Shown in pieces: positions 9,380 to 50,820 of a stretch of 51,549 nt of DNA. The stretch comes from a virus (lineage: Duplodnaviria; Heunggongvirae; Uroviricota; Caudoviricetes), in the IMG/VR virus record IMGVR_UViG_3300020045_006153, positions 1-51,549 of that record. One strand, written 5' to 3'. A model generated the notes under the pieces. The model did not search any database. It saw only the letters and a program-made list of their open reading frames with translations, and was not told the DNA's origin. Positions within the stretch are counted from its first letter, which is position 1; every line of letters starts with the position of its first letter. A program made the translations under genes and the position numbers.

Positions 9380-10050
9380 AAAATTTCCAGTGTTAATCCG
9401 TTTACTAGTTTACTTTGCAGATCAGATAACAGAGATCGATCCATTTTAAATGTTGCTTCTTCGCCGTGCTCAAAAGTAAAATTTGTTAAAGAATTAGTTT
9501 TGTTTGCCCAATTTAACCATGGACTTAAAATATCATCAAACACAAATCTACCGTGATCCTTTGTAAATCCTGCTGTGCTAATTTTAACTGAAATAGGATT
9601 AGAAATAAATCCAGCCTTTAACAATTTTCGAACAACTAATTGTGTACGAACTGTTCGTCCAAAGTTAACTGCACTATGTAACTTACCAGTATCCATTTCA
9701 TACCATATGCCATCTGTTTGCAGTCTATGCATATGTCCGTGTTCTAAATCAACTAGGTACGCTTTTTCGCTTGACAGGGTTAGATGATATCTATCATCTA
9801 TATCAGCATGGCTGTGATAACATGTACCTGGTAATAAGTTAATAATACGGGCTTCACCTACTACTAATGGTAGTGTTTCATATATATCTTTCCAAATCGT
9901 ATTTTTTAATTCATCCTTTAATACCCAAGGATCATAAAAGAAATTGCCTGTTGGTTTATTAATAGCAAAACGGAAATCAGGGGAAGGCAAATTGTTAACA
10001 GCAGTTTGCAACATATTAGGTGTTACTGTATAGTGTGTTTTAATTAGCAT
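9376..10050 (-). CDS. 2OG-Fe(II) oxygenase, Asp/Asn beta-hydroxylase-like, with extra C-terminal domain
   Basis: LLPGTCYHSHADIDDRYHL ... LHSAVNFG..VR. Confidence 0.7.
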   Translation of the reverse strand: MLIKTHYTVTPNMLQTAVNNLPSPDFRFAINKPTGNFFYDPWVLKDELKNTIWKDIYETLPLVVGEARIINLLPGTCYHSHADIDDRYHLTLSSEKAYLVDLEHGHMHRLQTDGIWYEMDTGKLHSAVNFGRTVRTQLVVRKLLKAGFISNPISVKISTAGFTKDHGRFVFDDILSPWLNWANKTNSLTNFTFEHGEEATFKMDRSLLSDLQSKLVNGLTLEIL

Positions 10051-10068
10051 GTAAATATTTATATGCTA
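10045..10068. promoter_or_regulatory. Palindromic bidirectional late-type promoter
   Basis: TAGCATGTAAATATTTATATGCTA: 11 of 12 pairs complementary, with TAAATA on both strands, each 5 nt before an ATG. Confidence 0.7.
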
Positions 10069-10938: not shown

Positions 10939-12184
10939 AACATTTTGTATGCACCCGTTTACGGGATTAGCAACTAGAGAAGACGGAGCAATACAAGCAT
11001 GCTGCCGCAGCCACCCCGTGGGCTTTATCACTAAAGACACATTGGAAGATATTTGGAATAATGATACGATGAAACGTATTCGCAAGCAAGTACTAAACAA
11101 TGAACGTCCTAAGGAGTGTGAGCCATGTTTTGGGCTAGAAGATCAAGGTGTTGAAAGCCTTAGACAACGGCATATTGCAGGAGTAATTCCAGAAGCACGG
11201 ATCACACTGTACCCGAATGCAGTTAGTACAATGAGGGATGATTATTCTATGCCCTTTGAAATTGCAACAATGGAGATTAAACTAAACAACCTTTGCAATC
11301 TCAAATGCCGCATGTGTCATCCTATGGATAGTACAAGTTGGAATGACTGGAAAGAAGTTGAAGAATTTTATGTAAAAGAAAACAACTTTATGGTAAAGGC
11401 AATTAAAGACCTTAACCTAATGCAAAAGCCTTATCTTGATAAGTTTGACGATAATCCTAATTGGTGGATTAGTTTTGAGAAATTGTTACCGTATTTTCGT
11501 AGAGTAGAATTCGCAGGCGGCGAGCCGCTTATGGATCCACAACATTATCGCATACTCGATATGCTTGCTCCGTATGGGCATCAAATAGAAATTAAGTATG
11601 CAACCAATGCAACTATGTTAGGCAAAGGCAAACGCACTGTTTGGGAATATTGGCCTAAGTTTAAATCTGTTGCAGTTAATGTAAGCATTGACGGTATTGG
11701 TCCTAGTTATGAATATATACGAGGTAATGCAGATTGGGACGAAGTAATCGCTAACATTAAATTAATGCAAACTATTCCTAATATTAGTCGTATCGTTGGC
11801 GCAGTAGCAGTTCAAGTAAGTAATGTATTAATATTAGATGAAATGATTGAATATTTCTTAAATGATCTCAACATTATATTTTACACCAATATTGTTAAGT
11901 ATCCAACTGTATTATCTGTACAAGTATTGCCAGTCGAAATAAAAGAACTAGCAATAGGTAAACTAACTGCAATACGAAAACGAGTACATATGTTTAAAAA
12001 AGTAATTGAAAATCCTATATTACTCGATCTTACTTACAAACAAATAGACGGCATTATAAATTATATCAATTCAAAAGATGAAAGCAGCAAATGGCAAGAT
12101 TGCATTTCATACAACAGTAAATTAGATGCAACCCGAACACAAAGTTTCTTCGATACAACTCCGGAATTTAAAGATTATGAATGA
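10922..12184 (+). CDS. Radical SAM protein with N-terminal SPASM/twitch-like Cys cluster (sub-family A)
   Basis: CNLKCRMC, FAGGEP and TN motifs; N-terminal FCMHPF...ACC...CEPC. Confidence 0.9.
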   Translation: MSQNSKTFCMHPFTGLATREDGAIQACCRSHPVGFITKDTLEDIWNNDTMKRIRKQVLNNERPKECEPCFGLEDQGVESLRQRHIAGVIPEARITLYPNAVSTMRDDYSMPFEIATMEIKLNNLCNLKCRMCHPMDSTSWNDWKEVEEFYVKENNFMVKAIKDLNLMQKPYLDKFDDNPNWWISFEKLLPYFRRVEFAGGEPLMDPQHYRILDMLAPYGHQIEIKYATNATMLGKGKRTVWEYWPKFKSVAVNVSIDGIGPSYEYIRGNADWDEVIANIKLMQTIPNISRIVGAVAVQVSNVLILDEMIEYFLNDLNIIFYTNIVKYPTVLSVQVLPVEIKELAIGKLTAIRKRVHMFKKVIENPILLDLTYKQIDGIINYINSKDESSKWQDCISYNSKLDATRTQSFFDTTPEFKDYE

Positions 12185-48400: not shown

Positions 48401-50146
48401 ACCTACTACAATAAATTGCACAATGATTACGATTTTACGTATGGCTCGTGCTGGAGTATGGTAGATAATATTCCGTTGATCTCACAACCTTACCCTCCTT
48501 CTATTAAAGAAGCAAAGATGTATAAGGATTATAAGTTTAATTGGAATATGCCCTACACTCATTTACGCACAATGAAAGCATTTTTGTTGCAGGACCAAGA
48601 GTATACTAAATTTAAAGACGCAGACGGTAAATGGTTTAAAGCGGGCGGTGATAATGCTACATTCTATACAGCATTAGAGAAATGTGATCCAAATAGAGTA
48701 TATGTTGTTTCTGATATAGTGTACAATTATAATGATGCTAATCCGTTAAACGATTATAAAGTAAACAAAGACGAACAAGACCGTGCAATTACTGAAATTG
48801 TTTACACACGGCCTGTATCTATCAAAGAAGAAGTTAAAAATATTGTGAAAAAAATATTAATTGCAATTCCTACAAACAGAAACATAGAAGCACAAACATT
48901 TAAAAGTGTATACGATCTTATTATTCCAGACGGATACGAAGTTACATTTCAATACTATTGGGGTTATCAGGTTGATCAAGTACGCAATCTAATTGCACAT
49001 TGGACAACACAATATGGTTATGATTACCTATTTGCAGTAGATAGTGATATTGCGTTTGCTCCAGATACACTTGTAAAACTATTATCTCATAATAAAGATA
49101 TCGTTTCTGGAATTTACATTCAACGTATTCCAGGAACGCATACGATTGAAATTATGCGAAAGAATGCCCGCGGCGGTGTAAGTCACGTTAATTGGGCAGA
49201 AATTAAAGACAAAGGATTAGTACCAATTGATGGATGCGGGTTTGGCTGTGTGTTAATCAAGGCTGAAGTATTCGCAGCAATTCCGTATCCACATTTCTTG
49301 TATCATAGTGCATTAGATCATGCAAATACAGTAAGCGAAGATGTGCATTTCTGTAATCAAGTTAGAGATCGAGGATTTACACTATGGGCAGACACGACAA
49401 TACAATGTGAACACATTGGCTCGTGGACTTTTAGAGTAGATAACACTATTCCTGCAGTTACTGTTGAAGATCCAAACACTGCAAGATTGCGTGAACTAAG
49501 CAATATGCCATTATTGCCACAAGTGCATTACGATTATTTGGTAAGAATGCGTGATGAAATGCATATTAATCCAACAGTAATATATGACATTGGTGCTTGT
49601 GTATTACACTGGACAAATCGTGCAAAAACTGTTTGGCCAGCAAGTTTTACAGCATTCGAAGCAATGGATGAAACTGAATTTCTGTATAAAGAAGCAGGTA
49701 TCAATTATAGCATAGGTGTTTTAAGTTCAGAAGACGGTAAGGAAATTCCTTTCTATCAAAATATAGAGCACCCAGGCGGCAATAGTTATTATCGTGAAAA
49801 TGTAGAGTATAGTCCACCTGCTGCATTCTTATTTGACGATGCACATAAAGTAATAAAACGCACAATGACCTTAGATACTGTAGTGAAAACAATGGGCTTT
49901 CCTCTACCTGATTTAATTAAGATGGATGTGCAAGGTGCAGAGTTTGATGTGTTACGCGGTGCACAAGAAACATTGAAATCATGCAAGGACTTGATTTTAG
50001 AGTTACAACATGTAGAATACAATACAGGTGCTCCAATGAGAGAAGAAGTTATTACTTACTTAGATAGTATCGGATTTAGGTTAGTTACAGGAATGTTTGC
50101 CCAAGGCCCCGGCGACGGCGACTATCACTTCACTCGATATAAATAG
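45416..50146 (+). CDS. Five-domain glycosyltransferase-methyltransferase (GT4 + GT4 + GT2 + GT-A + FkbM-type MTase), 1576 aa
   Basis: Two GGSE...ETxGIS..E GT4 modules; ISPLYNA...IDDASTD...LDGDD GT2; IAIP...VDSD...GFGCVLIK GT-A; YDIGAC...IKMDVQGAE FkbM. Confidence 0.9.
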   Translation: MNKLKIAIVDCIGLNYDGTTLTKKGIGGSESSIISIAKELAKIDFEVTIFNDCETVDTLPGVYDNVTYYPIKALGEQDFNFDIVISQRTVIPFTPIELYSQVQQPAPRDYNPAFFTQLQRPNQLKIIWMQDTFIWGDHLLEQLVLAGNIDEIFCLSDWHVSYTTHSTHGPRRNFEVLKDHIFHTRNAINRWIDWVDVKAKDPNLFVYNASITKGMEPLVRKIWPRLKQQLPNAKLKIIGGYYKFRTEDVSSAQAQVMALQDLTRDDPTVEFTGIIPQPKIAEIMAQASYNLFPAAYPETSGISSIESINYNTPIIGTRFGAMEESATEVASYFIDYAIEPNGLFPNINSDTQVDKYVDAVVNIVRNPYLHQQKQYACNAIKDVSTWDTVALQWKQHFYNIAELALTTEEKEKVEWINYRVHKSFERRFINPEEIIVTPPQLTTVPLPGQTASIAIIDIVGMAYDGDTLNRKGMGGSESAVILISKELAALGLNVTVFNACNEEGNTPGVYNGVTYKPLAEIVNANAFDVVISSRVVYPFIQPNRYNYPQSTNRKFDYSAFEKIRNAAKLKVFWMHDTFCWGDDILEDLVVEGSIDEIWTLSDFHAMYVMNCTHGPNMRNYEVLRKRMWTTRNGIVKYFDKVDIDTKDPNMFIFNANMSKGLSPLLNNVWPRVKVRLPDARLTIIGGHYKLGAAFAHNNEEDEFMKIIGSHQSDSTITFTGIISQKEVAEYSAKASYFIYPAALPETYGISTLEALYANTPLLTCKFGALEETGSKYSYYIDYAIVPNGLYPNINAEIQADKFVDMVVEAYNDKDSHRYRMEELDNVKDIAGWDATALEWKQHIYNEFGLYLSRSESIRANYTRSKYHEIFGRRLSTKEEWLAPAQKTEQKIVVISPLYNARDYVTRCIASVAAQNYNNYEHWIIDDASTDDSVNVAKEYIEALPLPIQDKFKLFRNKENHGAVSNHISVINRQDSDTIIIMLDGDDSLTNKPDVFTYYNKLHNDYDFTYGSCWSMVDNIPLISQPYPPSIKEAKMYKDYKFNWNMPYTHLRTMKAFLLQDQEYTKFKDADGKWFKAGGDNATFYTALEKCDPNRVYVVSDIVYNYNDANPLNDYKVNKDEQDRAITEIVYTRPVSIKEEVKNIVKKILIAIPTNRNIEAQTFKSVYDLIIPDGYEVTFQYYWGYQVDQVRNLIAHWTTQYGYDYLFAVDSDIAFAPDTLVKLLSHNKDIVSGIYIQRIPGTHTIEIMRKNARGGVSHVNWAEIKDKGLVPIDGCGFGCVLIKAEVFAAIPYPHFLYHSALDHANTVSEDVHFCNQVRDRGFTLWADTTIQCEHIGSWTFRVDNTIPAVTVEDPNTARLRELSNMPLLPQVHYDYLVRMRDEMHINPTVIYDIGACVLHWTNRAKTVWPASFTAFEAMDETEFLYKEAGINYSIGVLSSEDGKEIPFYQNIEHPGGNSYYRENVEYSPPAAFLFDDAHKVIKRTMTLDTVVKTMGFPLPDLIKMDVQGAEFDVLRGAQETLKSCKDLILELQHVEYNTGAPMREEVITYLDSIGFRLVTGMFAQGPGDGDYHFTRYK
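50138..50145 (+). promoter_or_regulatory. TATAAATA late-type promoter upstream of the structured RNA
   Basis: Exact T4-late consensus overlapping the GT stop codon. Confidence 0.65.
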
Positions 50147-50154
50147 TATTAGAT

Positions 50155-50265
50155 AAGAATCCCCTTAGGATCCGTTGATGTAACGGAAGCGAGTTCGCTC
50201 GCTACAGGCGTCCGCGCAATTGAACTGCTCCGCGTAGTGAGCCCGGTATAAAGTAAGCCGGTTTA
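50155..50265 (+). ncRNA. Candidate structured non-coding RNA (two hairpins plus a pseudoknot)
   Basis: GC-rich island in AT-rich DNA. Hairpins TCCGTT/AACGGA and AGCGAG-TTCG-CTCGCT (UUCG tetraloop); CGCG/CGCG plus GCTC/GAGC pseudoknot; terminal CCGG/CCGG stem. Confidence 0.7.
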
Positions 50266-50277
50266 ATTTAAATACTA

Positions 50278-50358
50278 ATGAGCAATCCAAACGATTATCC
50301 TGTATATCCAGAAGACGATGGCACCGACAGGCCACGCAATCCCTATAGCCCTGTATAA
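50278..50358 (+). CDS. 26-aa Pro/Asp/Tyr-rich micropeptide (not in ORF track)
   Basis: MSNPNDYPVYPEDDGTDRPRNPYSPV*; TAAATA 3 nt upstream; the next ATG follows 1 nt after the stop. Confidence 0.55.
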   Translation: MSNPNDYPVYPEDDGTDRPRNPYSPV

Positions 50359-50359
50359 C

Positions 50360-50764
50360 ATGAAATTATTTGAATTCTCCTCTGCTCCTATCCCTGACTT
50401 TACTGTAATGATCAGTAAAATGTTACCTATCGCAATGAAGGAACTAAAATTAGATTCGTTGCCTCATATTGTATTAATGAAAGAATTAGATGATACTGAA
50501 CAACCTACGTTTGGTTGTTACGTTGCTGGTGAAAATGTATTGTTCTTATCACTAAATAATCGTCATCCAGTTGATGTGTTACGCACTTGTGCACACGAAT
50601 TAGTACATTATAAGCAAGATCTAGACGGAATTCTTGACGATGAAAGCGGTAATACAGGCAGTGATGTTGAAAATGAAGCAAATGCAAAAGGCGGTGTTAT
50701 TATGCGACATCTTAATAAAGCACATCCTGAGTTTATGCGGGCTGAACCAATTGAACTTCCATAA
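50360..50764 (+). CDS. Putative zinc metallopeptidase-like protein (HExxH)
   Basis: RTCAHELVHYKQ followed by ENEANA. Start moved to MKLFEF (50360). Confidence 0.7.
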   Translation: MKLFEFSSAPIPDFTVMISKMLPIAMKELKLDSLPHIVLMKELDDTEQPTFGCYVAGENVLFLSLNNRHPVDVLRTCAHELVHYKQDLDGILDDESGNTGSDVENEANAKGGVIMRHLNKAHPEFMRAEPIELP

Positions 50765-50765
50765 G

Positions 50766-50787
50766 AAAAGGACCCGAAGGTCCTTTT
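50766..50787. terminator. Bidirectional intrinsic terminator
   Basis: AAAAGGACC-CGAA-GGTCCTTTT between convergent genes. Confidence 0.9.
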
Positions 50788-50820
50788 TGTTTATCTAATA
50801 ACTAGTATTTTATATTGGGA

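Follow-up and report, generated by a model that had tools for sequence, protein, structure and literature searches.

A conserved five-helix RNA element at gene junctions of uncultured freshwater T4-like phages

The stretch of DNA analyzed here (51,549 nt, hereafter the window) comprises the first 51.5 kb of the 353-kb IMG/VR record IMGVR_UViG_3300020045_006153, a phage genome that is approximately 99% complete. Near the end of the window, a perfect T4-type late-promoter box overlaps the end of a giant open reading frame (ORF), and the 130 nt on the 3' side of this box have a G+C content of 49-54%, as against 38% genome-wide. The locus thus raises the question of what this GC-rich stretch without an ORF specifies, and what its product might do. 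The initial annotation had read it as a structured RNA behind a perfect TATAAATA, with a core resembling the S-adenosylmethionine (SAM) riboswitches SAM-II and SAM-V. The first part of that proposal is confirmed by at least 119 distinct homologues and by their covariation: the element is a genuine structured non-coding RNA of ~105-110 nt. It represents a previously unnamed RNA family that is restricted to uncultured freshwater T4-like (jumbo) phages.

Comparative evidence for a structured RNA

When the window's sequence was folded alone, it was not significantly different from shuffled sequences (z = -1.2 on the plus strand and -2.0 on the minus strand). Because these scores are no better than those of shuffles, the single sequence proves nothing by itself, and the support for the fold is comparative. 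Homologues were collected starting from loci that encode relatives of the 134-aa protein whose gene follows the element (the best 80 of 285 in IMG/VR). In 17 of these 80 loci, the non-coding stretch upstream is 71-87% identical to that of the window, while the proteins are only ~50% identical. A covariance model was then built from 11 sequences. IMG/VR was scanned with a 14-base pattern and metagenomes with a stricter 20-base pattern, and the resulting counts are lower bounds. The model confirmed at least 55 matches from the IMG/VR scan and 99 of the 100 loci listed in the metagenome scan; altogether, the distinct sequences derive from more than 200 loci on IMG/VR and lake-metagenome contigs, many of the source contigs being named as lake or freshwater samples. 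In the window itself, the model matches positions 50155-50276 with 121 bits (E = 1e-26).

The family shares an architecture of five helices over ~105 nt (range 95-135 nt), arranged as a row of hairpins linked by a single-stranded core, GGCGUCCGCG, that is itself invariant. In alignments of 52 and 87 distinct rows, which were fitted to the helices of the model and are consequently biased toward them, standard pairs fill 92% of the pair cells, compared with 29-42% when the pairing partners are slid by one to three columns. The covariation test revealed compensatory changes on both sides in 16 (52 rows) and 18 (87 rows) of the 23 pairs, and none of 500 shuffles reached the observed covariation. 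The fitting bias cannot explain the covariation of the P3b mini-helix, because the P3b pair lies outside the search model: the closing pair of its GC-AAUU-GA segment is CG in 71 rows and AU in 16, and it is never unpaired. Furthermore, frequent G-U pairs occur on the plus strand only, and the RNA is therefore assigned to that strand.

Helices P4 and P5, at the 3' end, form in every sequence, and covariation extends to each of their ten pairs. Conversely, P3 is optional, leaving no trace in about half of the family and varying in length from 0 to ~40 nt; its compensatory changes were seen by eye only and stand outside the pair counts. Every stem named in the initial annotation exists, and all but P3 entered the covariation test. 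The P1 loop, CCUUA in the window and ACCUUA as the invariant loop of the family, lies within CCUUAGG, which is invariant in A1, and holds a YUNR motif (CUUA). The P3b 8-mer is palindromic over 6 or 8 nt in 117 of 118 sequences, and from this sequence feature it could be a dimerization site instead of a two-pair hairpin, although cofolding of a homodimer through the 8-mer gave an energy no better than that of shuffles (-9.6 versus -8.7 kcal/mol).

A core capable of forming a pseudoknot had also been proposed, and the columns concerned are near-invariant across the family. The candidate pseudoknot PK1 pairs the GCG of the P4 loop (50232-34) with the CGC of the core (50213-15), and this pairing is possible in every sequence; both sides of the CGCG:CGCG interaction are invariant, and hence there is no covariation signal either way. 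A second candidate, PK2, joins the P2 loop with the core GGCGUC, and is paired in 81% of cells as against 32-58% when slid, the core side being invariant. In the switch drawn by the initial annotation, GGAU would pair with either AUCC or GUCC; the alternative helix GGAU:GUCC is possible in 89% of cells but shows no covariation, GUCC being invariant. Outside the proposed helices, mutual information revealed neither covarying pairs nor a second structure, and there is thus no positive evidence for a switch.

A coding role for the element was considered and rejected. The lengths of its members fall in all three modulo-3 classes and most members have stops in every frame, which argues that the element is non-coding; with no frame conserved across it, a 56-aa ORF on the minus strand is therefore spurious. 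ARAGORN found no tRNA or tmRNA in the window.

The element is likewise absent from the catalogue of named RNA families. The whole window was searched against the 4227 models of Rfam 15 at gathering scores, and a 601-nt segment (49900-50500) at E ≤ 10, along with eight related loci; no model matched within the element at either setting. RF00521, RF01826 and every other SAM family failed to match within the element at E ≤ 10. Across the 601 nt scanned, a single line named a SAM family: a chance match of 12 bits to SAM-SAH at 50029-50064, which lies on the opposite strand and within coding sequence. The element is new relative to Rfam 15; Fremin et al. (2023, PMC10690425) have predicted 8,495 structured RNA candidates, all unnamed, in IMG/VR, and the element may be among them.

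Distribution and position at gene junctions

In the 353-kb genome, BLAST and the covariance model both find a single copy of the element, with neither a second copy nor a copy of its sister type D (described below). Two relatives of the phage, 92% and 100% complete, are without it. A search of representative genomes from 185,579 species of bacteria and archaea with the 20-base pattern returned one place, in a metagenome-assembled genome of Mucilaginibacter, which fails the covariance model. BLAST against GenBank phages yielded no homologue of the element among the phages searched, and the covariance model found no match in the whole genome of T4 or in the Synechococcus phages B23 and S-SRM01. 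So far, the element has not turned up in any cultured host-phage pair. It is abundant in lake metagenomes yet confined to one group of giant phages, and its alignment and covariance model make the family directly testable.

Table 1. Features of the element and its surroundings in the window
Feature	Position	Strand	Evidence or remarks
Giant ORF, 1576 aa	45416-50146	+	TAG stop at 50144-46; glycosyltransferase domains and C-terminal FkbM methyltransferase
Perfect T4-type late-promoter box TATAAATA	50138-50145	+	Formed by last codons and stop of giant ORF; predicted start ~50151
Structured RNA element, type A member, P1-P5	50155-50264	+	Covariance model and covariation
P1 hairpin, AUCC/GGAU	50159-62 with 50168-71	+	CG/UA/UG covariation in 3 of 4 pairs
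P2 hairpin, CCGUU/AACGG, loop GAUGU	50172-76 with 50182-86	+	Compensatory changes in all 4 pairs (A3)
P3 hairpin, UUCG cap, optional	50189-93 with 50198-202 (element part 50188-50203)	+	Alignments
Near-invariant core GGCGUCCGCG, then palindromic 8-mer GCAAUUGA (P3b), then ACU	50207-50226	+	Invariant columns
P4, 5 bp, bulged U at 50238, loop GCGUA	50227-31 with 50237 and 50239-42	+	100% of cells paired; 5 of 5 pairs covary
P5, 5 bp, invariant 9-nt loop AUAAAGUAA, then UUUAAUUU	50243-47 with 50257-61	+	100% of cells paired; 5 of 5 pairs covary
Second late-promoter-like box, TAAATA	50269-50274	+	3 nt before micro-ORF ATG
Micro-ORF, 26 aa (..YPVYPEDDGTDRPRNPYSPV)	50278-50358	+	Conserved companion of element
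HExxH protein, 134 aa, N-terminus MKLFEF	50360-50764	+	PHROG 87 'metallo-protease', E 4e-7; 3' of micro-ORF after TAAc
Strong terminator	50765-50788		Directly 3' of the 134-aa HExxH gene

As shown in Table 1, the element lies between two late-promoter-like boxes. By analogy with T4 biology, we infer that TATAAATA functions as a promoter with a start site a few nucleotides before the RNA. Only 26 copies of this box exist in the 353 kb of the genome, most of them no more than 60 nt ahead of an ORF start. The second box belongs to a wider pattern, in which TAAATA stands 4-5 nt before the ATG of 29 ORFs in the genome (for example, at window positions 10063, 34123 and 50269); the background at the remaining spacings scored (0-15 nt) is 0-3. 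Most genes of the genome carry AAGGAG-type ribosome sites at -6 to -9. The TAAATA-ATG spacing suggests that these ORFs form a class of leaderless, or nearly leaderless, late mRNAs. Since TAAATA follows P5 and 29 genes share the TAAATA-ATG arrangement, the late mRNA of the next gene would start downstream of the RNA.

The position of the element relative to genes was scored in those 105 distinct members whose flanks were long enough. The element begins within 12 nt of the stop codon of an upstream frame in 78 of the 105; on its 3' side, TAAATA occurs in the first 22 nt beyond P5 in 64 members, and an ATG in the first 20 nt in 71 (68%). A TAAATA of its own just upstream is found for 8 of the 105 members, including L212, where it is located right after a terminator, and a U-rich tail follows P5 in 11, some 90% of members being without a U-tract. 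The consensus terminator scan likewise called no terminator at P5 in the window.

Among the 71 proteins that begin shortly after P5, 58 have an MRxxEF-type N-terminus, and they are otherwise unrelated: HExxH metalloprotease-like, HAD-like and ART-like proteins, the last with an STS motif, are represented alongside others. The HExxH protein is the commonest gene family adjoining the element. The shared N-terminus, MR(A/I)xEF or MKIxELL, was noted in the downstream proteins of L013, L035, L093, L109, L131, L147 and others, and at 50360 in the window. It recalls MKTYQEFIAE, the capsid-targeting sequence of T4, and by this analogy the MRxxEF proteins may be packaged and injected. The element marks junctions where these phages swap genes for proteins resembling capsid-targeted injected effectors, with a bearing on both accessory-gene shuffling in T4-like genomes and late gene expression.

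The micro-ORF is a second companion. It is found just upstream of the element, within 330 nt, in 39 of the 105 members, and downstream of it only in the window. Its family comprises proteins of 24-38 aa that end in ..(N/D)(D/E)YPVYPEDDG(T/Y)DRPRNPYSP(V/A) directly before the stop codon, and was recorded in the window (50278-50358), in L035 (2736-2822) and in 38 other loci. The micro-ORF is often translationally coupled to a secreted nuclease-like gene upstream, and also occurs without the RNA element, as a variant in L073.

Comparison of loci with and without the element indicates how these junctions may have arisen. The FkbM methyltransferase upstream ends in ..GDYHFTR(Y)K before its stop, and these end codons themselves spell the TAAATA box. 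In L014/L016 (2925-2944), which lack the element, the methyltransferase stop is joined directly to TAAATA-ATG and there is a single box. In the window, L093, L184 and L239, on the other hand, TAAATA is kept at the methyltransferase stop and a second TAAATA follows the element. With two boxes where the element is present and one where it is absent, the element looks like an insertion at the promoter box; and because L014/L016 join the same stop to the same TAAATA-ATG, the downstream gene does not need it. The element thus behaves as a portable intergenic module that is dispensable for its neighbors.

The 1576-aa ORF upstream is itself of a size that is unusual for a glycan-tailoring fusion in a phage; it contains two GT1/GT4-type modules, a GT2 module and an Anp1-like region in addition to the FkbM methyltransferase at its C-terminus.

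Three divergent members of the family (L177, L199 and L285; 3 of the 119 distinct sequences) lie in tRNA clusters, on the tRNA strand, while the window copy does not. In L177, the element abuts the 3' end of a tRNA-Trp. The same contig encodes, close to the element, a group I intron (60 bits) together with a permuted tmRNA of betaproteobacterial type (141 bits), at 9735-9964 and 11018-11285, which fit a betaproteobacterial host for the phage group.

Candidate functions of the element

Complex conserved RNA folds with invariant junctions have repeatedly proved to be riboswitches, ribozymes or ribonucleoprotein cores. For the present element, the reading that we favor, tentatively and at somewhat less than an even chance, is that it is an autonomous small RNA acting in trans. 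The RNA lies between two late-promoter boxes and is therefore probably made late. Transcription would start from the TATAAATA at 50138 and give either a separate RNA or a longer transcript for the micro-ORF and the metalloprotease-like gene, with the element as its leading 110 nt. The RNA would act by presenting its invariant loops to a conserved partner, with neither SAM sensing nor control of a single gene. What has been observed is the RNA itself, together with its strand, helices and distribution; late transcription, action in trans and the partner are proposals that extend these observations.

Support for autonomy is provided by the single copy, the absence from near-complete and complete relatives, the many unrelated upstream genes and the members in tRNA clusters, and further by the members with their own TAAATA (8/105) or a U-rich tail (11/105), by the direct stop-to-TAAATA-ATG joins of L014/L016, by the predicted late start of the next gene's mRNA downstream of P5 and by the lack of a covarying alternative fold. 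The YUNR motif in the P1 loop and the match of invariant nucleotides to the antisense of 23S rRNA (discussed below) may additionally point to an antisense type of action. Antisense RNAs of phages and plasmids, such as C4 of P1/P7, CopA and Sok, have hairpin loops with YUNR, and some are processed from longer transcripts. The element resembles them in its YUNR loop and its invariant loops, but no cis-encoded target was found for it, and at the level of sequence its only notable complementarity is to 23S rRNA.

Two sets of phage RNAs invite comparison. In T4, two small stable RNAs of 119 and 139 nt, rnaC and rnaD (also called species 1 and 2), lie in tRNA clusters near internal-protein genes. 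Three members of the present family also lie in tRNA clusters, but most do not, and when the T4 tRNA region was searched with filters off, the best score was 7.6 bits and fell outside rnaC/rnaD, with no match in sequence or structure. The manA and wcaG motifs are orphan phage-associated RNAs (Weinberg et al. 2010, PMC2864571); the element matches neither, although it shares with them the trait of being a conserved, covarying intergenic RNA in uncultured T4-like phages.

Several observations weigh against an autonomous RNA. The proximity of an ATG to P5 in 71 of the 105 members, with 58 of the proteins being of the MRxxEF type, looks cis-regulatory. As 78 of the 105 members start near an upstream stop codon, the RNA of most phages would be without its own promoter and form part of an mRNA, and as no terminator is called after P5, the window copy may be a plain 5' leader. 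A search of the sequence within 1.5 kb for sites that the invariant loops could target as antisense in cis gave no consistent result, and the window's own local alignment to antisense 23S rRNA is weak (z = 1.9). There is also no direct evidence of a discrete stable transcript. No RNA runs holding the window's own sequence were listed. Four metatranscriptome studies yielded contigs that overlap, at low depth, parts of the element and its flanks in the relative L035; these are compatible with transcription, but show neither ends nor strand, and DNA carry-over is possible.

A second reading, which we consider possible but doubtful, is that the element acts in cis as a boundary or cassette element. 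The fold would end or insulate the upstream unit, through 3'-end protection, processing or assistance to termination, and the element, TAAATA and ATG-MRxxEF together would constitute a unit moved by recombination between gene junctions. Such an element would be an elaborate late-gene counterpart of the PeSL and PmSL of T4-like phages. These are composite terminator-promoter cassettes of hyperplastic regions, in which a stem-loop immediately precedes a promoter and start codon; they are associated with gene shuffling, and Comeau et al. (2014, PMC4122927) relate them to the internal-protein locus of T4. The parallel is close in position, since the element too is a structure directly ahead of the promoter and start codon that open an accessory gene in a plastic T4-type region. 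It does not extend to the RNA itself: PeSLs are short, simple, single hairpins present in many copies, with sigma-70 or Mot promoters and a Shine-Dalgarno site, whereas the element is single-copy and ~105 nt long, with five helices, invariant loops, a late TAAATA and no Shine-Dalgarno site. PeSL and PmSL cassettes are reportedly also described in work by Arbiol and colleagues from 2010.

The order of stop codon, element, TAAATA and ATG in most members, the occurrence of different downstream proteins with the same first codons, and the duplicated TAAATA of the window, L093, L184 and L239 as against the single box of L014/L016 are all as expected of a boundary cassette, as is the observation that type D sisters are often followed by sigma-70-like TTGACA-N17-TATAAT promoters or U-tracts. 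Yet a terminator or recombination site has no need of the invariant loops and core, P5 is without a U-tract in ~90% of members, and the compensatory changes reflect selection for RNA folding and not for DNA homology.

It is unlikely that the element is an orphan riboswitch or protein-binding leader, in which the core would bind a small molecule or a phage or host protein and thereby control translation or read-through of the gene 10-15 nt after P5 (here, the micro-ORF/metalloprotease-like operon). The anatomy is riboswitch-like, in that a conserved, aptamer-like fold supported by covariation combines an invariant junction with candidate pseudoknots and an optional hairpin of variable length, and the RNA forms the 5' end of the late transcript predicted in the window and in L212. 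While the ATG lies within 20 nt in 68% of members, the intervening TAAATA would place the late start downstream of the RNA, and the genes in question are functionally heterogeneous and work without the element in relatives. Similarly, the GGAU:GUCC pairing could supply an alternative state, but no alternative fold shows covariation, and the P5 loop is invariant, unlike an expression platform.

Still less probable is a self-cleaving ribozyme that would process polycistronic transcripts at gene junctions: an intergenic location in phage operons, an invariant core with candidate pseudoknots and a size typical of small ribozymes would suit it, but the element matches no ribozyme family in Rfam, and neither a conserved candidate cleavage site nor any computed sign of catalysis was identified.

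Finally, the idea of a SAM-II/SAM-V riboswitch variant was rejected, as the Rfam models, size, architecture and gene context all speak against it, and a SAM sponge is most improbable. The SAM reading had arisen from an apparent likeness of GCGCAAUUGAACUG to the SAM-V loop and from the many SAM-using enzymes encoded elsewhere in the genome. SAM-II and SAM-V are H-type pseudoknots of ~50 nt with a ligand triplex, and have in common with the element only a possible H-type pseudoknot involving a GC-rich strand; in the five-helix fold, the SAM-V-like segment is a covarying palindromic mini-helix and not a triplex strand. Nor are there methionine or SAM genes nearby, the neighbors being the glycosyltransferase/methyltransferase fusion, the micro-ORF, the metalloprotease-like gene and diverse MRxxEF proteins.

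Sister families and complementarity to ribosomal RNA

The element described above, type A, has relatives of types B, C and D, which agree with it in their 5' motif (..CCUUAGGNCCG..), in an AAAGU hairpin close to the 3' end and in position, and differ from it in the middle. Type D, with at least 109 distinct sequences, is a sister family of similar size, and its conserved parts are a heptaloop hairpin GGCUGCU, the loop AUUCGCUAC and AAAGUGAGC.

Conserved motifs of these types were compared with the E. coli rrnH operon. The motif CUUAGGACCG, common to the types, is the exact complement of 23S 1920-1929. In type D, the loop UUCGCUACC is the complement of 23S 1929-1937, adjacent to the CUUAGGACCG site, and the hairpin CGGCUGCUGG is the complement of 16S 518-527; the perfect antisense matches of this type extend over 12-14 nt to 23S 1918-1933, 9 nt to 23S 1929-1937 and 10-11 nt to 16S 517-527. 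The invariant type A pattern, ACCUUAGG-N0-2-CCGUU-N5-7-ACGG, has a match in the antisense of 23S 1908-1931; by our own estimate, ~5e-6 such matches per rRNA operon would be expected by chance. Shuffled elements routinely give rRNA matches of 8-10 nt. The 3' domain of type A gave only matches of 7-8 nt to rRNA, which shuffles also routinely reach. Local alignment to antisense 23S rRNA gave z scores of 3.6 for L035 and 4.2-5.1 for type D, compared with the low value noted above for the window; every member aligns to the same 23S site, and the matching columns are the invariant ones.

Taken at face value, these matches would make types A and D anti-ribosomal RNAs, whose invariant nucleotides, presented in loops, would pair with the universally conserved stretch of 23S rRNA around helix 69/70 (~1908-1937), the 16S 530 loop being a further target of type D; we put this proposal forward as improbable on present indications. 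Late in infection, such RNAs would bind ribosomes or their precursors and could re-program or silence translation, for example in favor of the apparently leaderless late TAAATA-ATG mRNAs of the phage, and a functional complementarity of this kind, if true, would be a new viral route to act directly on the ribosome. The changes in P2 argue otherwise, as they keep the element's own hairpin and not the complementarity to rRNA, and the likeness to rRNA could be the relic of a captured rDNA fragment. The complementarity is accordingly a lead and not a result.

Type D occupies the same kind of junction as type A, and was recorded in IMG/VR at L005, L025, L026, L028, L060 and L328-L447.

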